Shown here: piece by piece, positions 5,945-19,658 of the stretch
Position numbering within the stretch: position 1 is the stretch's first letter
Layout: every line of letters starts with the position of its first letter
From: a virus
Strand: one strand, 5' to 3'
Length of the DNA stretch: 19,658 nt
Virus genome (UHGV): UHGV-0171543
Position numbers and translations under genes: made by a program
Notes under the pieces: generated by a model
What the model was told of the DNA's origin: nothing
The model's input: only the letters and a program-made list of their open reading frames with translations
Databases searched by the model: none

Positions 5945-6833
5945 CGTGTTCACCCTCACGAACTTTCAGGTAGGTATTGTCGTTAAGCAGGAAATCAAAT
6001 CCCTTTTTGTGCCAGACGGTTCCGCGTTGATGGTTTGGGCGTTCTTCGAACATCCATCGGCAATTTTCGCCTACGTAGCTCAAATAATTTCTCCAGTCCT
6101 GCATCGAGAACCCATGCCCGTCAAGCTGGCGGGTTATCACTCCGGCTTTGCGCCAGAACGTTCGGATCTGGTTTTTACGCTTGTCATTCAGTGCGCGGAT
6201 TCTTGGCGCTTCAGGAAGGATTTCGTGGTAAGCATCGACAACATCCTGACAGCTAACGGAAGGTTTTTTCTTGTCAGACTTTTTGTCTGCTGTGGCACTC
6301 TCTAATACGTCAGTATTAGAGATAATATTATTATATTCTTTATCTGTGGTAATTTGCTGGTAATCTGCTGGTACAGTATTGCTTACAGGCATTGGTATTG
6401 CTGGCTTTGAGGTGGTAATTTGCTGGTAATCTGCTGGTACAAAATTTGACTGATAATCGTCATATTTCTCTACCGAGAAAACTGAGAATTTACCGTGTGA
6501 AACCCAGTCAATCATGCCGAGTTTTTTGAACTTTCTAAGCAGGTACTGAACGCGATCTGGTTTGAGTCCTGTTTCAAACGCCAGAGAGTTTCTACCGCCA
6601 AGTAGCTTACCTCTGCCTACCAGAATTTCTCCTGCGTCAGTCATTACATACTCAGGCGTATGCTTTGCTTTGAGGATTAAGTGAACCCACAGATGTGCTG
6701 CTTCTGCGTCCTTGTAAAACGGCACATCCATAATTTTACGGTGCAGCAAGGCATACCCCTTACCGCTGCTTTGATGCGGTTGTTGTAGCCTTCTGGCCTC
6801 TCTGGCTTCGGCTAGATTAGATATGTTACTCAT
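5934..6833 (-). CDS. Replication initiator O-like protein (non-lambda allele) containing the origin iterons
   Basis: 299-aa ORF directly downstream of cII in the O position. The repeated peptide [10 protein letters not shown] is encoded by the DNA iterons. The N-terminal domain does not match lambda O as I recall it. Confidence 0.8.
6300..6441. repeat. Putative replication origin inside the O gene: iterons plus adjacent AT-rich segment
   Basis: GGTAATTTGCTGGTAATCTGCTGGTACA occurs twice (6348..6375 and 6414..6441), each made of two approx. 10-bp GCTGGTA units. A perfect 8-bp inverted repeat (TCTAATAC-GTCA-GTATTAGA, 6301..6320) and an AT-rich run (6321..6345) lie just beyond, downstream in the O reading direction. 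Confidence 0.65.
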
Positions 6834-6972
6834 GACCTTTCTCCTTCTGCATCAGCTTCACCTTTTCCAACTCAGCCCGGAATCGACCAGGCTGCTTGAA
6901 GCTGGACAGGAAGCGATCACGTAGTATGTGTTTGTGAATTTTGTCCTGGTAAGGACTGAGTTGTTTTGTCAT
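6826..6972 (-). CDS. Small hypothetical ORF between cII and O (48 aa, basic)
   Basis: Below the ORF-track length cutoff. Minus-strand ATG at 6972 preceded by AGGAG about 7 nt upstream. Its stop overlaps the O start (ATGAGTAA). Hand translation [48 protein letters not shown]. Confidence 0.35.
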
Positions 6973-7004
6973 AATGACTCCTGTGGATTGATCCAGTAAT
7001 TCCC

Positions 7005-7304
7005 TCAGAATTCCATCTGGATTTGTTCAGAACGCTCGGTCTTGCACACCGGGCGTTTTTTATTGGTGAGTCCATCAAGCGCATACTTAAAAGCCCTGCT
7101 AATCGGACTGATGTCTGATGCCATTCCAAAAGCACACAGAACCGAAGCAATAAATCTCCAGTCCGTTCTGCTTATCTTCGATTCATGACAGCCAATCATC
7201 TTTGCCAGACCGCGCTGGGTAAGCGTGGACAGGTTGATGAGTAAATCTGTTTCTGCGCGATCAACGTCGCGCTGTGATAGTTTGCTGTAACTTGTTTGTT
7301 CCAT
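7005..7304 (-). CDS. cII: cII-like transcriptional activator (mosaic: lambda-type C-terminus, different N-terminal domain)
   Basis: 99-aa ORF at the cII position. The C-terminal [17 protein letters not shown] matches the lambda cII C-terminus as recalled. The N-terminal 75 aa carries a different HTH-like segment ([18 protein letters not shown]). Confidence 0.7.
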
Positions 7305-7368
7305 TTCTTACTATTTCCATAGGTAAATAATCACTAATACTCATCTTTCGATGAGTGCTTAATTAGTT

Positions 7369-7402
7369 ACCGCGTTGTCGGCGGTGCAGATTGATAAAGA
7401 GC
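7369..7402 (-). promoter_or_regulatory. nutR-like site: boxA plus P22-type boxB hairpin
   Basis: In the rightward transcript, CGCTCTTTATCA (boxA-like) is followed by ACCGCCGACAACGCGGT (hairpin with GACAA loop). A second hairpin ACTCATC-GAAA-GATGAGT lies at 7338..7355. Confidence 0.6.
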
Positions 7403-7410
7403 GGTGTTAC

Positions 7411-7620
<210 letters not shown>

Positions 7621-7637
7621 TTAGTACATGCAATCAT

Positions 7638-7705
7638 TATCACCGCTAGAGGTAAAATAGTCAACACGCACGGTGTTAGATATTTATCCCTTGCGGTGAT
7701 AGATT
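7638..7705. promoter_or_regulatory. oR1-oR2-oR3 operators with divergent pR and pRM promoters
   Basis: 17-bp sites TATCACCGCTAGAGGTA (7638..7654), CAACACGCACGGTGTTA (7662..7678), TATCCCTTGCGGTGATA (7685..7701). pR -35/-10 on the minus strand (AGTCAA 7659..7664, ATTATC 7637..7642). pRM -35 TAGATA and -10 TAGATT on the + strand. cI starts at the first ATG, as for the leaderless lambda cI mRNA. Confidence 0.9.
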
Positions 7706-7708
7706 TAA

Positions 7709-8425
<717 letters not shown>

Positions 8426-8432
8426 CACGTAA

Positions 8433-8870
8433 ATGATTAAAGAACGTATTTCTTATATCATTCCGATTGCGATGGATGAAGGCAACCCCGTAACTCCAGT
8501 TCTTATCTATGAAATGGATAAAGACTCCCATGAAGTGGATCTGTCATTTGGCGCTTTTTTTATCGGCCTTAAGGCTACAAAAAAATATTCCATAGGCATT
8601 GAGGTTTTCAATGCTCAAGAAATACCGATACCAATTGACACAAAACTGTACTCCAACCATAAGTTTTTTACGGTAGCAGAAGCCAACGATGGAGAAACCA
8701 TCGTATCAACTTCTATGAGAATTAACTTCCCAAGGGTGAAAATTATCAAGCCTGGGATATTCGAAGTTAGAGCATCACTGGTTAATCCTGAGAAAGGCGA
8801 AGTAATTGATGTAAAAAGTTCGTTTTTTGACGTGAAGATAACAGGATCAGTTCGCGATGAGTTTAGATAA
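8433..8870 (+). CDS. Hypothetical protein A of a two-gene cassette at the rexA position (unknown function)
   Basis: 145-aa ORF starting 7 nt after the cI stop, same strand. No TM segment and no motif I recognise. Confidence 0.7.
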   Translation: MIKERISYIIPIAMDEGNPVTPVLIYEMDKDSHEVDLSFGAFFIGLKATKKYSIGIEVFNAQEIPIPIDTKLYSNHKFFTVAEANDGETIVSTSMRINFPRVKIIKPGIFEVRASLVNPEKGEVIDVKSSFFDVKITGSVRDEFR

Positions 8871-9228
8871 CAAGGTTGCTCAGCTTCGTCCAAATCAAAA
8901 CATATCTCGCCCAATTGGACACTATTACACTGATGATGCATACTCACGGCATGGTGGAGGAAACGGCGGAGGTAACATGCTTGAGGCTAGAGTTGCAAAG
9001 CTAGAGTCTGATGTTGAATACATCAAGCGCGATCTCGCTGAGGTAAAGTCAGATATAAAATCTGTTGATTCTCGTCTGTCAGGTATTGAGACAAGCATTA
9101 GCTCAGCAAAAACCACCATTAAGGCATCTGCGGTCGTTGTCAGTTTCGTGTTCGCATTTTGCGCCTACATTTTTGGAAGTTATGTTTCCAAAATCCTTGA
9201 TGCCTTAAACGGACTCATTCTTAAGTAA
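8857..9228 (+). CDS. Hypothetical membrane protein B of the cassette: Gly-rich linker, amphipathic coiled coil, single C-terminal TM helix
   Basis: 123-aa ORF overlapping gene A by 14 nt. An alternative start at ATG 8977 is preceded by GGAGGT and would give 84 aa. Heptad-like segment LEARVAKLESDVEYIKRDLAEVKSDIKSV, then hydrophobic AVVVSFVFAFCAYIFGSYV near the C-terminus. Confidence 0.7.
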   Translation: MSLDNKVAQLRPNQNISRPIGHYYTDDAYSRHGGGNGGGNMLEARVAKLESDVEYIKRDLAEVKSDIKSVDSRLSGIETSISSAKTTIKASAVVVSFVFAFCAYIFGSYVSKILDALNGLILK

Positions 9229-9235
9229 CACACAA

Positions 9236-9261
9236 CCCGGCCTCAGTGCCGGGTTTTCTTT
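9236..9261 (+). terminator. Rho-independent terminator closing the cI-cassette operon
   Basis: CCCGGC-CTCAGT-GCCGGG stem-loop followed by TTTTCTTT, 8 nt after the gene B stop. Confidence 0.6.
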
Positions 9262-9413
9262 GCCTCTCGATCCCCCTTCCCAACAACACATAACCATTTG
9301 TATTTATTGGAAAACTAATAGATAAAACTTGCTAAACAGTGCAATTCTGATCCCTCACCTACCTAACAATTCACCCCCTGCAAAAAATAAATCCATATAA
9401 AAAACATACAGAT

Positions 9414-9476
9414 AACCATCTGCGGTGATAAATTATCTCTGGCGGTGTTGACATAAATACCACTAGCGGTGATACT
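9414..9476 (+). promoter_or_regulatory. oL3-oL2-oL1 operators and pL promoter
   Basis: AACCATCTGCGGTGATA (9414..9430), TATCTCTGGCGGTGTTG (9434..9450), TACCACTAGCGGTGATA (9458..9474). pL -35 TTGACA (9448..9453) and -10 GATACT (9471..9476) with 17-bp spacing. Near-identical to lambda pL as recalled. Confidence 0.85.
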
Positions 9477-9521
9477 AAACACATCAGCAGGACGCTGGAA
9501 GCCAAACGGAACAGATTGGCA

Positions 9522-9556
9522 TGCTCTTTAACTTCGATGGGGCGCTGACAAAGCGC
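9522..9556 (+). promoter_or_regulatory. nutL-like site: boxA and P22-type boxB
   Basis: TGCTCTTTAAC (boxA-like, 9522..9532) followed by GCGCTGACAAAGCGC (9542..9556, 4-bp stem with GACAA-containing loop), in the pL leader upstream of N. Confidence 0.65.
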
Positions 9557-9720
9557 AAACAGATACCAAACGAGATGGGTTTGGGATTTGATGAATGTGC
9601 AGGTCGATGCACTAACGCTTAGCGGTGAGCACCTGCCTTTGGGGCAGGATGGGTAGCCGCAATCAGGAGATCGACACCTGACATCAAATCACCAAAGCCA
9701 TTTCACATGAGGAAAACATC

Positions 9721-10029
9721 ATGACGGTAATCGTGTACGGAAAATCAACATTTGCAGGAAATGCCAAAACTCGCCGTCATGAGCGGCGCAGAAAGCTGGC
9801 TATCGAGCGTGATGCTATATGCAACATCATCGATTCGATCTTCGGTACAGACAGTGATGAACCTTTTCAGGAAAAACCGAGAAAGCGTTTAAATCTTTCT
9901 GAAAAAGCAATATCACTCAGCAACATTCGTAACCAAAATACCGATGAATGCAGTGGAAGTATTTGTCTTCCAAATGTAGCTCTTTACGCGGCAGGCTACA
10001 GGAAATCAAAACAACTGACGGCGAGATGA
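9721..10029 (+). CDS. N: N-family transcription antiterminator, P22 gene 24 type (arginine-rich motif)
   Basis: 102-aa ORF, first gene after pL, with GAGGA RBS. N-terminal GNAKTRRHERRRKLAIER is the P22 N arginine-rich boxB-binding peptide as recalled. Not lambda N. Confidence 0.85.
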   Translation: MTVIVYGKSTFAGNAKTRRHERRRKLAIERDAICNIIDSIFGTDSDEPFQEKPRKRLNLSEKAISLSNIRNQNTDECSGSICLPNVALYAAGYRKSKQLTAR

Positions 10030-10044
10030 TAAATCATTTGCTAA

Positions 10045-10626
10045 TTACTTGTTTTTGCCATGCTTATCCTGAGCGATAAGTTCATCCATAAGACTGTCTT
10101 TCTTCCCAGCAAACCTAATGTAGCACTCATTTCTATAGCGTTCCGGGATAACAAAACGGTCGATTTCAGGATATCCAGTAGCAGAAGGTATCCGAATAAG
10201 AAGCCCTTTTTCGAGCAATGAGATTGCTTCAGGGCTTCCCTTTTCTGTCTTTAGCTGGTTATTCGCGGCTACAGCGAATGCCAAATACGCTCTTTCTCCA
10301 AGAGTTAACGAATCAAACAAATCTTGCACATATTTTTCTTCTTTAGATTTGCGCTTCTGAGCAGCGGATACCTCAATTCTTTCAGTCACAGCGTGATAAG
10401 CGGAATTAACAACACCGTTAAGCACATAGCTAACGCAGAACAACAGGATGTAATACATCCAATAATGAGGAAGGATTTCTGGATTATGCAGGTTTATCCA
10501 TTCTTTTACGCTTACCGGCATAACAATAATCAATATGATCAGGATGATTAGCATATGAATCAACTGTTTAAGTGTCATTCCTTGCAGGAAAAAATGCATT
10601 AGTTCCTGCCACCATGAGTTGTTCAT
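10045..10626 (-). CDS. sieB: Superinfection exclusion protein B
   Basis: 193-aa ORF opposite in orientation to N, with an N-terminal hydrophobic segment (LIHMLIILIILIIVMPV). Matches lambda SieB as recalled. Confidence 0.8.
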   Translation of the reverse strand: MNNSWWQELMHFFLQGMTLKQLIHMLIILIILIIVMPVSVKEWINLHNPEILPHYWMYYILLFCVSYVLNGVVNSAYHAVTERIEVSAAQKRKSKEEKYVQDLFDSLTLGERAYLAFAVAANNQLKTEKGSPEAISLLEKGLLIRIPSATGYPEIDRFVIPERYRNECYIRFAGKKDSLMDELIAQDKHGKNK

Positions 10627-10769
10627 CGGCGTTTCTCTTTTGCTCGCTGTAGGGGTGAATAGAGTTTATCCGATTTCTCGCTGTAGGGGTACACGAGAAC
10701 CACCGAGCCTGATGTGGTTAAAAGACAGGCACAATCTTTACTACCGCAATCCACTATTTAAGGTGATAT

Positions 10770-10856
10770 ATGGAAGAAGAATTTGAAGAGTTCGAAGAGC
10801 ATCCTCAGGATGTGATGGAACAATACCAGGACTATCCTTATGACTACGACTATTGA
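10770..10856 (+). CDS. Small acidic ORF (28 aa) overlapping the ral start
   Basis: ATG at 10770 preceded by AAGGTGA. Hand translation MEEEFEEFEEHPQDVMEQYQDYPYDYDY. Its stop overlaps the first codons of ral, which has no obvious SD of its own. Confidence 0.3.
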   Translation: MEEEFEEFEEHPQDVMEQYQDYPYDYDY

Positions 10857-11040
10857 TAAAAATCAATGGTGTGGACAATTCAAGCGATGCAATGGATGCA
10901 AGCTGCAATCGGAATGCATGGTTAAGCCTGAAGAAATGTTTCCTGTAATGGAAGATGGGAAATATGTCGATAAATGGGCAATACGAACTACGGCAATGAT
11001 TGCCAGAGAACTTGGTAAACAGAACAACAAGGCTGCCTGA
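10840..11040 (+). CDS. ral: Restriction alleviation protein Ral
   Basis: 66-aa ORF MTTTIDKNQWCGQFKRCNGCKLQSECMVKPEEMF..., matching lambda Ral as recalled. Confidence 0.85.
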   Translation: MTTTIDKNQWCGQFKRCNGCKLQSECMVKPEEMFPVMEDGKYVDKWAIRTTAMIARELGKQNNKAA

Positions 11041-11100
11041 TGTGTGGCCTTTATTTTTTGGCCGTAAATAATTTCATGCTTATTACAATCAAGGGGATAT

Positions 11101-11550
11101 ATGGAAGAACAAGCAAACAAGATTCTCGTAGAACTACTGCAAAAAGCCAGCAATGGAATAGACACGGCTGTTTCATTCAGCCAGGCGCAGATTCCTGATG
11201 TTGTTCATCAGTTGCTGCTATGGAATATGGTTGACAGTCTGATTAAAACATTAATAGCCATTCTAACAATCCCACTGGTTTTCTGGTTTATGAAGAAGCA
11301 GTGCCGAAGAGTTGAGACAGGTAAAATCGGTGATGAAGGATATTCATGGGAGAAGGGAAATCCCAAATACAGGCCGACAATGGTTTGGGATAGCAAAGGT
11401 GATATTAATCTTCTTATCATGCCATTAGTTGGAGTTTTGGCTCTGTGGGGGATTTTTATTATTAGTGCAGTAACCAATATGACATGGTTAAAAATTTTGC
11501 TGGCTCCAAAGCTTTACCTTATCGAATATGCAGCATCATTGGTTAAGTAA
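11101..11550 (+). CDS. Hypothetical inner-membrane protein (two predicted TM helices)
   Basis: 149-aa ORF with AAGGGGA RBS. Hydrophobic segments LIKTLIAILTIPLVFWFM and INLLIMPLVGVLALWGIFIISAV. No lambda counterpart recalled at this position. Confidence 0.6.
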   Translation: MEEQANKILVELLQKASNGIDTAVSFSQAQIPDVVHQLLLWNMVDSLIKTLIAILTIPLVFWFMKKQCRRVETGKIGDEGYSWEKGNPKYRPTMVWDSKGDINLLIMPLVGVLALWGIFIISAVTNMTWLKILLAPKLYLIEYAASLVK

Positions 11551-11737
11551 TTTCAGGCCGCATAGTCGGCCTTTATTTTTGGCACTAACAACAGAATAAA
11601 CACTGCACTGTGTATTCATTCCAACGAGTGAATACACGGAGCAATGTCGCTCGTAACTAAACAGGAGCCGACTTGTTCTGATTATTGGAAATCTTCTTTG
11701 CCCTCCAGTGTGAGGGCAATTTTTTGACGGAGGATAT

Positions 11738-12706
11738 ATGAGTGAAGTAACAGATTTAGTTGTTATTGAAAAAGCAAATGCAATGACTGTATTTCAGTCT
11801 GCCGACCAGATTGAAGAAATCCTTCAAAAGGTTGAACGTGAAGTTATGTCCTTTGTGCCTGATATCACAACGGCAAAGGGCAGAAAGGAGATCGCTTCTC
11901 TGGCGTATAAAGTTGCGCAGACGAAAACATATCTCGATGGTCTTGGCAAAGACCTTGTTGCTGAACTGAAGGAAATTCCAAAGCTAATTGATGCCAACCG
12001 CAAGACAGTGCGCGATCGCCTTGATGAACTGAAAGCCAAGGCACGCCAGCCTCTTACTGATTATGAAGAGGAACAGGCGCGGATTAAAGCCGAAGAAGAA
12101 GCTAAGGCAGCAGCTGAAGCTCTCGCAAAGCAAATTGAGTCTGACCATGAAATAGCGATTTTGATGGATCGCGAATTTGACCGCCAAAGAGAAGAGGCAA
12201 GACTCAAAGCGGAGCAGGAAAAGCGAGAGCATGAAGAACGCTTAAAAAGAGAAGCTGAAGAGAAAGCCAGAGCAGAAGCCGAAGCAAAGGCAAAAGCCGA
12301 AATTGAAGCAGCAGCAAGGCGAGAAGCAGAAGCTAAGGCCGCAGCGGAACGTGCAGAGCGTGAACGCATTGAAGCCGAGCAACGAGCACAGCGCGAAGCA
12401 AAAGAGGCAGCAGAACGAGCTGAAAGAGAAAAGCAGGCGGCAATTGAAGCAGAACGCCGAAAAGCACAGGAGGAGGCTGAACGAATCCGGCGCGAGGCTG
12501 AAGCAAAAGAGCAAGCCAGAATAGCAGAAGAAAAAAGAATCAAGGACGAAGAAGAGCGTAGAGCAAAGGATAAAGCTCACCGGAAAGAAGTAAATAACAA
12601 AATACTTGCTGACCTTATCAAGGTTGGCGCATCAGAAGATGTTGCTAAAAATATCATAACAGCCATCGTAAAAGGCGAAGTATTCGCAACAAAAATAACC
12701 TACTAA
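11738..12706 (+). CDS. Hypothetical protein with a long K/E/A/R-rich low-complexity coiled-coil core between N- and C-terminal domains
   Basis: 322-aa ORF with GGAGG RBS. The central region of roughly 170 aa is an EAEAKAKAE/AERAERE-type charged repeat; the flanks are ordinary sequence. The repetitive DNA creates spurious ORFs on the opposite strand. Confidence 0.65.
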   Translation: MSEVTDLVVIEKANAMTVFQSADQIEEILQKVEREVMSFVPDITTAKGRKEIASLAYKVAQTKTYLDGLGKDLVAELKEIPKLIDANRKTVRDRLDELKAKARQPLTDYEEEQARIKAEEEAKAAAEALAKQIESDHEIAILMDREFDRQREEARLKAEQEKREHEERLKREAEEKARAEAEAKAKAEIEAAARREAEAKAAAERAERERIEAEQRAQREAKEAAERAEREKQAAIEAERRKAQEEAERIRREAEAKEQARIAEEKRIKDEEERRAKDKAHRKEVNNKILADLIKVGASEDVAKNIITAIVKGEVFATKITY

Positions 12707-12729
12707 TAAACCAACATAAGGAACCACCC

Positions 12730-12861
12730 ATGATTTACGCAATCGCGGGAGGCGCTCGCATGGGTGCCTTCCAACTAAATGAATCTTTACTTGAACGAAT
12801 CACCCGTAAATTACGTGACGGATGGAAAAGAGTTGAGGTCTTATTATGCGCAATGAAATAG
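12730..12861 (+). CDS. cIII: CIII-like protein (FtsH/HflB inhibitor), short allele
   Basis: 43-aa ORF, below the ORF-track cutoff, with AAGGA RBS. Contains ESLLERITRKLRDGWKR, the conserved central helix of lambda CIII as recalled. Confidence 0.75.
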   Translation: MIYAIAGGARMGAFQLNESLLERITRKLRDGWKRVEVLLCAMK

Positions 12862-12998
12862 CCATCAATCACCAGATGCTTCGTGCTGCACAGAACAAAG
12901 CAGTAATAGCCCGATTTATTGGTGATTCAAAAATGTGGCTTGAAGCAAATAAAGCGATGAAATCAGCTATCAACCTTCCGTGGTATCGCAGGAAATGA
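12846..12998 (+). CDS. kil: Kil-like protein (putative host cell-division inhibitor)
   Basis: 50-aa ORF overlapping the cIII end. The segment IARFIGDSKMWLEA resembles what I recall of lambda Kil (IATFIGDEKMFREA). Position after cIII fits. Confidence 0.5.
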   Translation: MRNEIAINHQMLRAAQNKAVIARFIGDSKMWLEANKAMKSAINLPWYRRK

Positions 12999-13165
12999 GT
13001 TTTACAGATAACTGGTCAGACGAAGAATTCATTCGTCAGATGAAAGAATTAATCGGTAACGAAGGAGATATTCATGTCACTTGCAACCACAGTGAAGGAG
13101 AGCAAGTTACAGAGACGCATGTACACGCAGCAGGCGTTAATGTATCGCCAGAAGGGAGATCGTGA
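12995..13165 (+). CDS. Small hypothetical protein
   Basis: ATG at 12995 overlaps the kil stop (ATGA), giving 56 aa (MSFTDNWSDEEFIRQMKELIGNEGDIHV...). The ORF track begins it at an upstream GTG (12980). Confidence 0.4.
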   Translation: MSFTDNWSDEEFIRQMKELIGNEGDIHVTCNHSEGEQVTETHVHAAGVNVSPEGRS

Positions 13166-13252
13166 AGGTGTTCGCGTATTTTTAAATGCGGCAAAGACTG
13201 AAGTATTAAATCAGCGTTATTTCCTTGGGCCGTGTCCATTCTGAGGTGAATT

Positions 13253-13960
13253 ATGGATTTGAATAAATTCGATGAGCCATTCAGCCCTGAAGATATCGAA
13301 TGGCGAATACAGCAAAGCGGTAAAACACGCGATGGCAAAGTGTGGGCTATGGTGCTGGCTTATGTCACGAACCGGGCAATCATGAAACGCCTGGACGATG
13401 TTTGCGGCAAAGCAGGATGGCGCAATGAATACCGCGATATTCCCAACAACGGCGGCGTTGAATGCGGCATATCAATCAGGATTGATTCCGAATGGGTAAC
13501 CAAATGGGATGCTGCTGAAAACACGCAGGTAGAAGCCGTCAAAGGTGGTCGTTCCGGTGCAATGAAGCGCGCTGCCGTTCAGTGGGGAATCGGTCGGTAT
13601 CTGTATAACCTTGAGGAAGGTTTCGCACAAACATCTCTCGATAAAAAGCAGGGATGGCACAGGGCAAAACTCAAGGATGGAACAGGATTTTACTGGCTCC
13701 CTCCATCGCTGCCGGGATGGGCAATCCCAACATCAGATAACAAACCATCACCAGAAAATACCAACCAGAAATCTCCATCGGTTGACTGCGAACAAATCCT
13801 GAAAGACTTCAGCGATTATGCGTCAACAGAAACTGACAAGAAAAAACTCATCGAGCGTTATCAGCGTGACTGGCAATTAATGGCTGGTAACGAGGAGGCG
13901 CAGGCTAAATGCGTTCAGGTAATGAACATCAGAGTTAACGAACTAAAACAGGCGGCATAA
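13253..13960 (+). CDS. Rad52-family single-strand annealing protein (Sak-like core) with Erf-like C-terminal tail
   Basis: 235-aa ORF with GAGGTGA RBS. Rad52/Sak-type motif GGVECGISIRIDSEW...AVKGGRSGAMKRAAVQWGIGRYLYNLEE. The C-terminal segment ETDKKKLIERYQRDWQL...CVQVMNIRVNELKQAA resembles the P22 Erf C-terminus as recalled. Confidence 0.8.
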   Translation: MDLNKFDEPFSPEDIEWRIQQSGKTRDGKVWAMVLAYVTNRAIMKRLDDVCGKAGWRNEYRDIPNNGGVECGISIRIDSEWVTKWDAAENTQVEAVKGGRSGAMKRAAVQWGIGRYLYNLEEGFAQTSLDKKQGWHRAKLKDGTGFYWLPPSLPGWAIPTSDNKPSPENTNQKSPSVDCEQILKDFSDYASTETDKKKLIERYQRDWQLMAGNEEAQAKCVQVMNIRVNELKQAA

Positions 13961-14434
13961 ATGGGAAGTAGAGGCGTAAATAAGGTGATCATTATTGGTC
14001 GCCTTGGGCATGATCCAGAAATCAGATATTCACCATCAGGAACGGCATTTGCAAACCTTACAGTTGCTACGTCAGAACAATGGCGTGATAAGCAAACTGG
14101 AGAGCAAAAGGAGCAGACGGAGTGGCACCGCGTGGTAATGAGCGGGAAACTGGCAGAAATTGCCAGCGAATATCTGCGAAAAGGCTCTGAGGTTTATCTT
14201 GAAGGCAAATTGCGGACAAGAAAATGGCAGGATCAAAGCGGACAGGATCGGTTCACTACCGAAGTTATCGTGGGCGTTGGTGGAACCATGCAAATGCTTG
14301 GTGGCAAGCAAGGAGGAAATGAACAGTCTTCACCTCAGCGAAATAACGGTCAGCAACAAAGACAGCAACCTCAGCAGCAAGGGAATCACAGCGAACCACC
14401 TATGAACTTCGACGATTCGGATATTCCGTTCTAG
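13961..14434 (+). CDS. ssb: Single-stranded DNA-binding protein
   Basis: 157-aa ORF starting at the ATG immediately after the annealing-protein stop. OB-fold-like N-terminal region, Gly/Gln-rich linker, acidic C-terminal tail DDSDIPF. Confidence 0.9.
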
Positions 14435-14443
14435 GAGCTGAAT

Positions 14444-14923
14444 ATGAAAATCTGCTCAAGATGCCATCAACAGAAGGAAGAAAGGGACTTTCAAATCAGA
14501 AGAGCATCCAGAGATGGATTAACTGCCGCTTGCCGGGCTTGCCTGGCTGAATACGACAAAGAGCGCGCGGGATTGCCACATCGAGTATCAGCAAGGAGAG
14601 AATATCAATCATCGGAACGCGGCAGAGAACGGTGTAACGCAGCCAAAAAGCGGTTCATTCAGAGCAACCCATGGAAAAGAAAAGCCCACATCATCGTGGG
14701 TAATTTTTTGCGCGACGGTAAGCTAATCCGACCACCACAATGTGAGTGCTGCGGATCAGAATGTAAACCACAGGCGCACCACTGCGACTACAGCAAACCA
14801 ACCGATGTGATGTGGCTCTGCAAGTCATGTCATGTCGAGTGGCACAAACATAACAAACCTATCTACCCAGACGAGGAGCCAGTAACTCTCCCCTTCCCTC
14901 GTCACGCTATTCACGCAATTTAA
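14444..14923 (+). CDS. Putative HNH endonuclease with N-terminal zinc ribbon
   Basis: 159-aa ORF. N-terminal CSRCH...CRAC and C-terminal CECCGSEC...AHHCDYSKPTDVMWLCKSCHVEWH fit an HNH (His-Asn-His) nuclease motif with Cys ligands. Confidence 0.6.
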   Translation: MKICSRCHQQKEERDFQIRRASRDGLTAACRACLAEYDKERAGLPHRVSARREYQSSERGRERCNAAKKRFIQSNPWKRKAHIIVGNFLRDGKLIRPPQCECCGSECKPQAHHCDYSKPTDVMWLCKSCHVEWHKHNKPIYPDEEPVTLPFPRHAIHAI

Positions 14924-14936
14924 TCAGGAGAAAATC

Positions 14937-15230
14937 ATGCCAGCGCCTCTGTATGGTGCGGACGACGCGCGCCGCTGTTCCGGCAATTCCGTATCGGAGG
15001 TGCTGGATAAATTCAGAAAAAACTACGATCGGATAATGTCGCTACCGCAGGAAACGAAAGAGGAAAAGGAATTTCGCCACTGTATATGGCTTGCAGAGAA
15101 AGAAGAACGCGAGCGAATTTACCAGACATCAATCCGACCATTCCGCAAAGCCACATATACCCACTTCCCTGAAATTGACCCGCGCCTGCGTAATTACCGC
15201 TCACGCTATGGTGCTATCAGTAATGACTGA
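14937..15230 (+). CDS. Hypothetical protein
   Basis: 97-aa ORF with GGAGAAAA upstream, in the same operon. No recognised motif. Confidence 0.5.
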
Positions 15231-15403
15231 GGAATTTACCATGAGAGGACTTGCATACAATCCCGGCATTCTTCCGGCAGAAATGATTATTCGCCAACGC
15301 GTAAAGCCAATGCCATCGAGAGAGGAATTGCTTAAGAGAAATTCTTTTCCATCAGTGAATCAAACAAATATCTGAATACGATGTGGCGCAAAGGAGGCAA
15401 CCA

Positions 15404-15964
15404 GTGAGTGTAACGGTTGAAAAGATTGATGTGTTGTCATTCGTTATAACCGGTGCAGAGAGACTAGATCCGGTTCGAGTGATGATTGAAAACTACGAAC
15501 CTGGAAAGGGAAGAATCACCATCACCTGCTACGGAAAAGCGTGGACTGCGGCTTGGTTTGCTATGGGCGGTGATGATGTGCAGACGTTCATTAAGCGAGT
15601 CAGCAACGATTATCTAATCGACAATTTCGACCCTCAACTGCTAAGCACGGTCGACGATGACAACGATGCAAATCTGCTTTTCGTGAAGTCAGAAATCATA
15701 AAGTTACGAAGAGAGAGAGAAATAGACGTCGTACTGGCTCGCGAAATGTGGGACGAGGCGGAAAACGCCGATGACGTAAAAGAAAGCTGCTGCTGTTTCG
15801 GCGTCGGTAACAAACTACTGAATCTCTTTGGTGATGATCCGTGGTATGCCAACTGGCCAACGATACCAAACCCGAAATACCAGTATCTGGAACGCGTACT
15901 TAATGCAGTGAGAGACGGTCTTAAGCAAATAGATGCAGGAGAGCAAAGCGATGAAAAACCGTAA
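15404..15964 (+). CDS. Hypothetical protein
   Basis: Start taken as GTG 15404, preceded by AAGGAGG at 15391..15397 (the ORF track uses an upstream GTG at 15383). About 186 aa, acidic. No recognised motif. Confidence 0.55.
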   Translation: MSVTVEKIDVLSFVITGAERLDPVRVMIENYEPGKGRITITCYGKAWTAAWFAMGGDDVQTFIKRVSNDYLIDNFDPQLLSTVDDDNDANLLFVKSEIIKLRREREIDVVLAREMWDEAENADDVKESCCCFGVGNKLLNLFGDDPWYANWPTIPNPKYQYLERVLNAVRDGLKQIDAGEQSDEKP

Positions 15965-16127
15965 GGCAAAACGACTTTTTTTACAGCGACCTGTGCGTGT
16001 GGTGGAGCTGGTTATTAGCAACCATAAGATAGCGGTACTCCATCCATTTGGTCAGGTGGCTTTTGCCGCAAAGCGTAAGCCTACTGCGTCACAGAACAGG
16101 CGGAAGAAAGGGTACGCTGTAAGATGA
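15951..16127 (+). CDS. Small basic protein, paralog 1 (MKNRKAK... family)
   Basis: ATG at 15951 preceded by AGGAGA, giving 58 aa (MKNRKAKRLFLQRPVRVVELVISNHKIAV...). Its stop overlaps the start of the next paralog. Confidence 0.4.
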   Translation: MKNRKAKRLFLQRPVRVVELVISNHKIAVLHPFGQVAFAAKRKPTASQNRRKKGYAVR

Positions 16128-16315
16128 AAAACCGTAAAGCAAAGATGCTTATTTCCCGTGTATACAGACGTTGCTATCCCAGCCAATGGTTGAGGGTTAG
16201 CAATCGCCGTGTGGTGTTGTTTTCATTTTCTGGAATTGCCAGAGAGGGAGTCAAAGATAAGCGTAGCGCGGCGCAAAACCGCTGGAAAAACCACTTGTGC
16301 ACTAAAGGAGCGTGA
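16124..16315 (+). CDS. Small basic protein, paralog 2 (MKNRKAK... family)
   Basis: 63-aa ORF beginning with the same MKNRKAK heptapeptide as the upstream ORF; both are rich in Arg/Lys. Tandem arrangement. Confidence 0.4.
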   Translation: MKNRKAKMLISRVYRRCYPSQWLRVSNRRVVLFSFSGIAREGVKDKRSAAQNRWKNHLCTKGA

Positions 16316-16316
16316 T

Positions 16317-16832
16317 ATGGCGTTAACACACCGCGAACTCTGTCAGATTGCGTACAAGTTCCTTAAGCGCAACGGGTTCAAGGTTTGTTTTCATGACCGC
16401 TTTATAGCTGTAACCAGTACCGGAGAACAGCCAGATGCTATGGGATTCAGAAATTCAGCATCATGCCTGATAGAGGCGAAGTGTTCTCGTGCTGACTTGT
16501 TGGCAGATAGAAAAAAGCGTTTCCGTAAAAATCCGTCTCTTGGAATGGGCGACTGGCGATTCTTTATTAGTGAGCCGGGAATTATTTCAATTGAGGATTT
16601 ACCTCCCGGCTGGGGATTACTTCACGTTGTTAACGGAAGAGTACGGAAAGTACATGGATGGCCCAAGGGGAATTGCTGTTGGGGTAACCCTGAAGATAAA
16701 CCTTTTATTGGGAATAAGCAGGTTGAATGCGATTACATGTTATCTGCATTAAGGCGCATGGAGTTGAGAGGGCACCTTAATGAAATATATGACGGTGTAA
16801 TTGTTAATAAGAAAGAAGGAAACGCGGCATGA
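16317..16832 (+). CDS. Hypothetical protein with PD-(D/E)xK-like motif (possible nuclease fold)
   Basis: Start taken as ATG 16317, preceded by AAGGAG (the ORF track starts at 16209, inside the upstream paralog). 171 aa. The segment QPDAMGF...CLIEAKCSRAD has the D...E-x-K spacing typical of PD-(D/E)xK nucleases. Confidence 0.5.
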   Translation: MALTHRELCQIAYKFLKRNGFKVCFHDRFIAVTSTGEQPDAMGFRNSASCLIEAKCSRADLLADRKKRFRKNPSLGMGDWRFFISEPGIISIEDLPPGWGLLHVVNGRVRKVHGWPKGNCCWGNPEDKPFIGNKQVECDYMLSALRRMELRGHLNEIYDGVIVNKKEGNAA

Positions 16833-17761
16833 TCACTATTACCAAAGAGTTCACCAAAGAGCAGTTGATTGAGCAGGCTAAGAAGAATATTGAGGTTCTT
16901 CGCGTTGCGGTGGAAAGAGTCCCAGGCGCTTATGATGCGGCGGTTATTCATCTCAAGCTGGCTGAAATTACGCTGGCATCGCTGGAAGCAGAGCCTGTTC
17001 TGTATCAGTCCTGCACACGCCCCACCTGGAATAGCGGAGTTCCGTGGACGGAATGGAAAGAACGTAGTCGTGAGGGCTACGAAGACGATTTGCGCTTTAC
17101 AGACACGCCTGACCATGCCGGTTGGATAAACAAATGTCGAAAACTATATACCACTCCGCCAGCACCGATAGCGTTAGAGGCCATTGAAAACGCAATTGAA
17201 TATATCCGCAGTATCGCTTTTCACATCGATGAAGACGATTACCACGGCAAGCATATTGCGTATTTCATGCGACAAGCACTGGTCTGGCTGGAAGGGCATT
17301 CATGCAGCAACGACAGACAGGGTAAAGCCGAGAATCAACCAGTACGCGGCAACCAGACTGCCGAATCCAATCGCGGTAATGAGTGGACCGGCAATCCTGA
17401 TATTGATAACGCCATCATCATGCTCGATCGCATAGATACGCTGGAAAGTTGCGATGATGACCGTATTGAGGCGGTTAAGGCTGTTTTGCGTAGACTGGCT
17501 GGCAACTATCCGGTAACTCCGGATGGTTGGATAAGCTGTAGTGAGCGAATGCCAGAAATGGGAGAGCGACAATGCTATGTGTTAGCAGCTGACTTTAAAA
17601 ACAACTACCCACCAAACATCCCCAACACTCAGGTCGGCGTATATGGCGACTGGTTTAATGATGGCAATCCCACTTGGGATGACGGTGATGGCGAAGACCT
17701 GTATCTCAAAGAGGTAACCCACTGGATGCCGCTACCGGAACCGCCACAGGAGGTGAAATGA
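16829..17761 (+). CDS. Hypothetical prophage early-region protein (C-terminal region resembles the DUF551-type domain)
   Basis: 310-aa ORF translationally coupled to the upstream gene. The acidic, Trp/Pro-rich C-terminus (VTHWMPLPEPP) resembles DUF551-type prophage proteins; this assignment is from memory only. Confidence 0.5.
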   Translation: MITITKEFTKEQLIEQAKKNIEVLRVAVERVPGAYDAAVIHLKLAEITLASLEAEPVLYQSCTRPTWNSGVPWTEWKERSREGYEDDLRFTDTPDHAGWINKCRKLYTTPPAPIALEAIENAIEYIRSIAFHIDEDDYHGKHIAYFMRQALVWLEGHSCSNDRQGKAENQPVRGNQTAESNRGNEWTGNPDIDNAIIMLDRIDTLESCDDDRIEAVKAVLRRLAGNYPVTPDGWISCSERMPEMGERQCYVLAADFKNNYPPNIPNTQVGVYGDWFNDGNPTWDDGDGEDLYLKEVTHWMPLPEPPQEVK

Positions 17762-17822
17762 TGCTTGGCCTGAAGTATTTTATGTAATTGGTATTGCTAT
17801 ATTTTTATCTGGGGATAAACGA

Positions 17823-18065
17823 ATGTTCTCTCTGATTCAACGTGGTCAGATATACACCGATAGCGCTGGCTATCCAGTAAAAATCATTCGTAGTACTGAT
17901 CACTCAGTGTTCTTCAAGAGGATGGATGGCTATCCTGGAAGGGTGTGCATCAGAAAATTCAATAATTTATTCGAACACATTGATCACAGAGAATATCACC
18001 AGATCCTGGCTGAAACAGAACAGGAGAACCATCTGAAAAAATTACGTGCCATGCAAAGGAGATAA
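17823..18065 (+). CDS. Hypothetical protein
   Basis: 80-aa ORF in the same orientation. No recognised motif. Confidence 0.45.
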   Translation: MFSLIQRGQIYTDSAGYPVKIIRSTDHSVFFKRMDGYPGRVCIRKFNNLFEHIDHREYHQILAETEQENHLKKLRAMQRR

Positions 18066-18145
18066 ACCGGTAAAGGTGTTCGCGATAAAGGTGAATATCG
18101 GCAATGAATAACAATCCTCGAACTCGCGGGGATTTCTTTTATCTG

Positions 18146-18170
18146 AACTCGCTACGGCGAGTTTTGTTTT
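18146..18170 (+). terminator. Putative rho-independent terminator in the pL operon upstream of xis
   Basis: AACTCGC-TACG-GCGAGTT 7-bp stem-loop followed by TTGTTTT. Confidence 0.45.
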
Positions 18171-18183
18171 ATGGAGATGATAA

Positions 18184-18351
18184 ATGCACTTCCGAGTCAC
18201 AGGTGAATGGAATGGAGAACCATTCAACAGAGTTATCGAAGCAGAGAACATCAACGACTGCTATGACCACTGGATGATATGGGCGCAGATAGCACATGCA
18301 GACGTAACCAATATTTGTATTGAAGAACTGAAAGAACACCAAGCCGCCTGA
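18184..18351 (+). CDS. Small hypothetical protein (55 aa) upstream of xis
   Basis: ATG at 18184 with GGAG upstream. Hand translation MHFRVTGEWNGEPFNRVIEAENINDCYDHWMIWAQIAHADVTNICIEELKEHQAA. Size and position resemble the small ORF next to xis in lambda, as far as I recall. Confidence 0.45.
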   Translation: MHFRVTGEWNGEPFNRVIEAENINDCYDHWMIWAQIAHADVTNICIEELKEHQAA

Positions 18352-18363
18352 TGGCGGTTTTTT
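18344..18363 (+). terminator. Putative rho-independent terminator
   Basis: CCGCC-TGAT-GGCGG stem-loop followed by TTTTTT, overlapping the stop of the 55-aa ORF. Confidence 0.5.
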
Positions 18364-18390
18364 CTTGCGTGTAATTGCGGAGACTTTGCG

Positions 18391-18609
18391 ATGTACTTGA
18401 CACTTCAGGAGTGGAACGCACGCCAGCGACGCCCAAGAAGCCTTGAAACAGTTCGTCGATGGGTACGCGAGTGCAGGATATTCCCTCCTCCGGTTAAGGA
18501 TGGAAGAGAGTATCTGTTCCACGAATCAGCGGTAAAGGTTGACTTAAATCGACCAGTAACAGGTAGCCTTTTGAAGAGGATCAGAAATGGGAAGAAGGCG
18601 AAGTCATGA
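18391..18609 (+). CDS. xis: Excisionase
   Basis: 72-aa ORF MYLTLQEWNARQRRPRSLETVRRWVRECRIFPPPVKDGREYLFHESAVKVDLNRP..., matching lambda Xis as recalled. Its 3' end overlaps the int start. Confidence 0.92.
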   Translation: MYLTLQEWNARQRRPRSLETVRRWVRECRIFPPPVKDGREYLFHESAVKVDLNRPVTGSLLKRIRNGKKAKS

Positions 18610-19658
18610 GCGCCGGGATTTACCCCCTAATCTTTATATAAGAAACAATGGATATTACTGCTACAGGGACCCAAGGACGGGTAAAGAGTTTGGATTAGGC
18701 CGAGACAGGAGGATAGCAATCACTGAAGCTATACAGGCCAACATTGAGTTATTTTCAGGACACAAACCACAAGCCTCTGACAGCGAGAATCAACAGTGAT
18801 AATTCTGTTACGTTACATTCATGGCTTGATCGCTACGAAAAAATCCTCGCCAACAGAGGAATCAAGCAGAAGACACTCATAAATTACATGAGCAAAATTA
18901 AAGCAATAAGGAGGAGTCTGCCTGATGCTCCACTTGAAGACATCACCACAAAAGAAATTGCAGCAATGCTCAATGGATACATAGACGAGGGCAAGGCGGC
19001 GTCAGCCAAGTTAATCAGATCAACACTGAGCGATGCATTCCGAGAGGCAATAGCTGAAGGCCATATAACAACAAACCCGGTCGCTGCCACTCGCGCAGCA
19101 AAATCAGAGGTAAGGAGATCAAGACTTACGGCTGACGAATACCTGAAAATTTATCAAGCAGCAGAATCATCACCATGTTGGCTCAGACTTGCAATGGAAC
19201 TGGCTGTTGTTACCGGGCAGCGAGTTGGTGATTTATGCGAAATGAAGTGGTCTGATATCGTAGATGGATATCTTTATGTCGAGCAAAGCAAAACAGGCGT
19301 AAAAATTGCCATCCCTACAACATTGCATGTTGATGCTCTCGGGATATCAATGAAGGAAACACTTGGTAAATGCAAAGAGATTCTTGGCGGAGAAACCATA
19401 ATTGCATCTACTCGTCGTGAACCGCTTTCATCCGGCACAGTATCAAGGTATTTTATGCGCGCACGAAAAGCATCAGGTCTTTCCTTCGAAGGGGATCCGC
19501 CTACCTTTCACGAGTTGCGCAGTTTGTCTGCAAGACTCTATGAGAAGCAGATAAGCGATAAGTTTGCTCAACATCTTCTCGGGCATAAGTCGGACACCAT
19601 GGCATCACAATATCGTGATGACAGAGGCAGGGAGTGGGACAAAATTGAAATCAAATAA
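18587..19658 (+). pseudogene. int: Lambda-type tyrosine integrase disrupted by a +1 frameshift (single extra C near 18767..18768)
   Basis: Residues 1 to about 58 (MGRRRSHERRDLPPNLYIRNNGYYCYRDPRTGKEFGLGRDRRIAITEAIQANIELFSGHK) are in one frame and stop after 70 codons. The rest of Int (HKPLTARINSDNS...DKIEIK, with catalytic-domain motifs) continues in another frame. The span is 1072 nt, not a multiple of 3. Removing one C from CACAAACCACAAG restores the lambda reading HKHKPL. Confidence 0.85.

Follow-up and report, generated by a model that had tools for sequence, protein, structure and literature searches.

The int locus at the end of the analysed stretch of DNA (the window; 19,658 nucleotides of the virus genome UHGV-0171543) raises the question of whether its interrupted reading frame reflects a real mutation and, if so, whether a prophage that carries it could still leave the chromosome. 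The best reading, to which a probability of about 0.86 is assigned, is that a real and inherited insertion of one C in codon 61 of a lambda-type int, within an att-lambda module, makes the prophage Int-null and excision-defective.

The features on which this reading is based are listed in Table 1. The 3′ end of xis overlaps the int ATG (18587) by 23 nt, as in lambda, and all close relatives carry the excisionase annotation for xis. Comparison of the window (CACAAACCACAAG) with lambda (CACAAACACAAG) reveals one extra C at 18767/18768, and in the alignment with lambda, phage vB_EcoP-720R6 and Escherichia coli FDAARGOS_1251, CACAAA-CACAAG stands opposite CACAAACCACAAG. The insertion falls in codon 61, which places the break between K60 and H61 at the end of the arm-binding domain. 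The 304-codon ORF in the +1 frame extends from 18744 to 19658; no stop interrupts this frame from 18717 onwards, and the earliest codon that could serve as a start is a TTG at 18744, upstream of which no Shine-Dalgarno sequence is found, nor is there a start codon in frame near the upstream stop. The first-pass annotation had described a change of the int frame near 18767, ORFs of 70 and 304 codons, a length of 1072 nt and one inserted C, and had placed the frameshift after the N-terminal arm-binding region; the ORF calls and the alignment agree with this description in every detail. Its conclusion that a full-length catalytic Int cannot be made likewise holds, the frames differing by +1 after codon 60. 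Because the frameshift is a direct sequence difference and not a statistical pattern, the question of chance does not apply.

Table 1. Positions of the int region, the recombination junction and other ORFs in the window
Feature	Coordinates	Strand	Basis or remarks
Two small ORFs, 145 aa and 123 aa	8433-8870, 8857-9228		Next downstream of the 237-aa cI, where lambda has rexA/rexB
SieB homologue (superinfection exclusion), 193 aa	10045-10626	-	Pfam PF14163, E=1.4e-25; between N and ral
Early-left ORF, 322 aa, conserved	11738-12706		Homologous to Sf6 gene 33; RefSeq relatives labelled 'cell envelope biogenesis protein TolA'
DUF2737-to-int module common to the E. coli prophage at att-lambda (beside ybhC)	15240-19658	+	15277-19658 100% identical, including the frameshift; one mismatch at 15276
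Crossover interval (72 bp) inside the DUF2737 gene	15277-15348	+	Left side identical to L150, right side to L128
xis (excisionase, 72 aa, intact)	18391-18609	+	ORF call; Pfam PF07825 Exc, E=3.9e-41
int, whole	18587-19658	+	Start to stop 1072 nt (1071 + 1); TAA at 19656-19658
int 5′ ORF, 70 codons	18587-18799	+	Int residues 1-60, then 10 out-of-frame codons (PQASDSENQQ); TGA at 18797-18799
CC dinucleotide holding the inserted C	18767-18768	+	Single C in relatives; alignment
int remainder, +1 frame, native His61-Lys356 and stop	18768-19658	+	Core-binding and catalytic domains

The domains on either side of the break are well preserved. The 70-aa ORF matches Pfam PF09003 (Arm-DNA-bind_1) over residues 1-62 (E=4.9e-31), and the +1-frame ORF matches PF00589 (E=1.5e-40) as well as PF22022 and PF02899. 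Residues R212, K235, H308, R311, H333 and Y342 are all conserved with respect to lambda Int, and residue 174 is Glu. When the C is removed in silico, a 356-aa Int is obtained that departs from lambda Int at six residues (S89N, G110S, H164P, A245T, I248V and D260G).

The extra C is absent from all 125 related int loci in a local BLAST alignment, the comparison with related alleles that the first-pass annotation had proposed, and each megablast match to the full query, whether from phages or from complete E. coli genomes, covers 1278 bases, one fewer than the 1279 of the window. A 61-nt probe across the site has no full-length exact match in any of the 1,872 complete E. coli genomes that gave full-length hits, the sole record in the band of at least 99% identity being the one partial match. 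Scanning public genome, viral and metagenome contig collections for the exact +C pattern likewise gave no match, and the same approach returned the wild-type pattern from at least 120 viral contigs. This absence from complete E. coli genomes, aligned viral contigs and phage records is what would be expected if the extra C were an artefact of one assembly and the true gene were intact, as is the observation that three further 1-bp indels (11043, 12707 and ~15362) initially seemed private to the window.

Look-ups of exact proteins, however, did find carriers, and the blank scan is explained by the absence of the carrier strains from the collections that were scanned. The exact 70-aa product is present on 44 public E. 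coli contigs (NCBI, ENA and Logan; indexed in 79 blocks), a number that may include repeated assemblies of single isolates, so that the independent genomes number fewer than 44, with at least three genotypes seen. The exact product of the 304-aa TTG ORF occurs on 33 contigs from the same three sources, all named E. coli, and the exact intact 356-aa protein on 43 contigs. In the two sets of frameshift-allele contigs that were examined (24/24 and 24/24), the same prophage adjoins ybhC. The window itself stops at the int stop codon, and the attachment site was read in the identical module of carrier L128, where the P′ arm, the core and the B arm of attL are followed by ybhC, the core and the B arm being intact. 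Carriers L128, L129 and L130 differ from one another by SNPs in the chromosome, by a 20-bp indel within O and by the deletion of ~158 bp from the stretch between ybhJ and ybhH, which indicates that the clade has diversified since the int mutation. The O-gene indel lies at 430-449 of L128 relative to L129, and the deletion lies at ~14970 of L130, a chromosomal gap where ybhI is not called.

Because the same allele recurs on 44 contigs, derived from several sources and assemblers and from strains with differing chromosomal flanks, the extra C is, on these comparisons, a real and vertically inherited 1-bp insertion. The site, AAAC changed to AAACC, is moreover not a long homopolymer, and the indels at 11043, 12707 and ~15362 recur in independent assemblies (L150 and L128-L147), so that there is no excess of indel errors in the window. 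A sequencing or assembly error, the alternative that had been raised at first pass, is thus very improbable. An error-prone assembly had also been considered in view of four 1-bp indels (the three above and that at 18767) against ~8 private substitutions at well-covered sites, and was rejected since all four recur in independent assemblies.

The age of the lesion can be judged from two sister genomes, L142 and L145, in whose copies of this prophage int is intact (356 aa). The int of both differs from that of the window by the C alone, and over 10,135 bp the prophage of the carriers is separated from theirs by the C plus 1-2 SNPs. Because so little separates carriers from intact sisters, the int lesion is, as far as these alignments tell, very recent, and the 10 kb that were aligned show no further decay. 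The first-pass annotation had called for a search for further prophage decay, which found none over this distance, and its suggestion of a domesticated prophage is unsupported: the accumulated decay or divergence that would mark long-term retention appears to be lacking. What the sequences do display is the mark of a defective prophage, namely a mobility gene that is disrupted relative to intact orthologues and inherited in that state. Two nonsynonymous and seemingly private changes, G110S and D260G, suggested relaxed selection after pseudogenisation; this idea was discarded, because the same two changes are present in the intact sister allele.

In lambda-type Int, a single polypeptide spans the arm and core sites. 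Translation from the usual int start would yield the arm-binding domain only, residues 1-60 with 10 nonsense residues at their end. The domains for core binding and catalysis (His61-Lys356) are encoded in the +1 frame without a credible start and are most likely not made, although some translation of a C61-like fragment may occur, given the frame open from 18717 and the TTG at 18744. Because arm and core sites have to be bridged by a single polypeptide, the lesion would be expected to put an end to both excision and re-integration by Int, and the prophage would stay locked in the chromosome unless the C were lost again or an Int of lambda specificity were given in trans. Such complementation could be provided by the same-specificity Int of another prophage or of an infecting phage. 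By analogy with published Int genetics (PMC9791396), neither Int activity nor excision would be expected of the split gene. Williams, Voziyanova and Voziyanov (2022; PMC9791396) reported that the C-terminal domain of wild-type Int alone does not recombine, and that no attP x attB recombination takes place when separate wild-type N- and C-terminal polypeptides are mixed.

The same study bears on the converse possibility that the split gene is functional, either because a programmed +1 frameshift yields full-length Int or because N60 and C61 together form a natural binary integrase. An engineered binary Int, in which N64 or N60 is combined with C57-C60 carrying E174K, recombines attP x attB at ~1-3% (PMC9791396), and its cut point is essentially the same as the 60|61 split of the window. 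Consistent with a functional arrangement, the N- and C-terminal domains meet exactly where the reading frame breaks, no catalytic residue is lost, and the downstream RNA has a somewhat more stable fold than shuffled sequence (z = -2.15). However, the activity of the engineered pair requires both E174K and an N-terminal piece of the right size, N64 or N60, since wild-type Glu174 pieces are inactive and the longer N70 and N74 fail (PMC9791396), whereas in the window residue 174 is Glu, N60 carries a foreign tail of 10 residues, and the C-terminal piece has no evident start, the TTG at 18744 being without a Shine-Dalgarno sequence. The downstream RNA has the same sequence in intact alleles, and by inspection there is no known +1 slippery motif in the overlap of the two frames (18717-18799). 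A conserved two-frame architecture, as in prfB, dnaX and the IS3-transposase genes, is not seen among the int homologues, the shifted arrangement occurring in none of 125 and having no full-length exact match in the 1,872 genomes. Because no homologue has the shifted architecture and a sister allele without the C is intact, the lesion is a new mutation and not a conserved design. Programmed frameshifting was rejected on these grounds, namely the unconserved architecture, the intact sister allele and no known +1 slippery motif on inspection, and a split but working Int as a whole is extremely unlikely.

It is conceivable that the N60 arm-binding fragment is expressed and plays a part of its own, as a dominant-negative at the arm-type sites of phages with lambda specificity or as one half of a natural two-piece recombinase with a weakly translated C61. 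The basis for this idea is the position of the split point and nothing beyond it, and it is considered highly improbable. Loss of Int function through a simple frameshift is the reading retained here.

Which prophage has lost its Int is a separate question, because the window is, by its identities with public assemblies, an exact chimera in which two prophage types, each known on its own, are combined. Positions 6753-15348 are 100% identical to L150, an ENA metagenome scaffold of a prophage type with a different right arm and integration module, and positions 15277-19658 are 100% identical to L128, which represents the prophage type with the frameshifted int. The two segments overlap in an interval inside the DUF2737 gene. 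This gene (15241-15375) is present as a short 44-aa allele, in which an A4 run is reduced to A3 at ~15362 and the last 14 residues are replaced by 3; it first seemed frameshifted, and is indexed in 42 blocks from several phage types, including prophages with intact integrases, as befits a circulating variant.

The junction may have arisen by very recent recombination in vivo between co-resident lambdoid prophages, or it may be an assembly mis-join. In the latter case, the real frameshifted int of an L128-type att-lambda prophage would have been joined by the assembler to the cI/replication/Rad52 region of an L150-type prophage across the 72-bp exact repeat, and the grounded prophage would not be the one whose cI and cargo stand in the window. 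Several observations point in this direction. In addition to the identities of the two segments, the left side is of the L128 type (RecT/Gp157/DUF5405) in all frameshift-allele contigs of both sets of 24, and is that of the window in none of them, and none of the 11 contigs with the Rad52 of the window carries this int. The mosaic of the window was found on no contig among the matches to the 145-aa cI-adjacent protein, the short DUF2737, Rad52 or the 304-aa ORF. The Logan contig L153, of the left-parent type (5 samples), ends at window position 15269, as would be expected of a branch in a k=31 graph if a second sequence homologous from 15240 were present in the same genome. On the other hand, module boundaries of just this kind are where lambdoid prophages recombine in vivo, the adjacency of abc2 and the short DUF2737 is present in other phages (L146 and L147), and the frameshift-allele contigs that were examined came from the blocks with the longest contigs, so that a window-type contig could be among the others. 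A mis-joined contig is therefore a possibility to be taken seriously, though a doubtful one. The chimeric junction makes the tie between the frameshifted int and the cI region of the window a tentative one, and leaves the reality of the frameshift unaffected.

Whether the cI (7712-8425), the two ORFs adjacent to it and SieB belong to the grounded prophage thus depends on the 72-bp junction, and so does the first-pass suggestion that a prophage with this int may go on expressing cI and its accessory cargo. The exact 145-aa protein is indexed in 1,098 blocks and follows this cI in 10 of 10 loci among the matches listed. Neither this ORF nor that of 123 aa has a Pfam match above the cut-off or a convincing PADLOC match, and both are candidate lysogen-expressed exclusion or defence genes. 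The 322-aa early-left ORF gave no Pfam or PADLOC match, and the PADLOC scan of the unannotated cargo ORFs as a whole returned marginal matches only (E >= 0.003).

Other truncated or frameshifted int products of E. coli, limited to the arm domain and independent of that of the window, belong to the same 90% protein cluster. One of them, P0002, stems from another frameshift in this lambda-type int and ends in an identical ENQQ* tail. P0003, present on 256 contigs, is 127 aa long and comes from a related int, and P0004, present on 17 contigs, is 62 aa long. As judged from these alleles, loss of int in such E. coli prophages is recurrent, and a frameshifted prophage integrase represents ordinary prophage decay of a kind that is already known. 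The significance of the present case is accordingly small, and no new mechanism is revealed. Its practical consequences are that int should be annotated here as a pseudogene and that the prophage of a small E. coli clade is predicted to be unable to excise by itself. Because the frameshifted and intact sister prophages are near-isogenic (the C and 1-2 SNPs in 10 kb), they offer a handy natural pair for relating Int loss to induction, lysis and prophage retention.

The repaired int of the window resembles lambda Int, together with those of 434, HK97 and others of lambda att specificity, in its length of 356 aa, its overlap with xis, its three domains and its catalytic residues. Lambda Int, however, is one heterobivalent polypeptide, whereas in the window the arm-binding domain is split from the rest by the C after codon 60; read from its frames, the locus is an int pseudogene and not a functional lambda-type heterobivalent integrase, because the domains are not in one continuous frame. 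Lambdoid prophages of E. coli with a disrupted int are well known, and close precedents are Sp3, Sp11 and Sp12 of E. coli O157 Sakai (Asadulghani et al., 2009; PMC2669165), and prophages disrupted in Int can still interact with other prophages in that strain (PMC2669165). Like the window type, these are E. coli lambdoid prophages with an inactivated int that are vertically inherited. They differ in the extent of the damage, in that the Sakai prophages bear multiple defects, whereas the window type bears a single, very recent base insertion.
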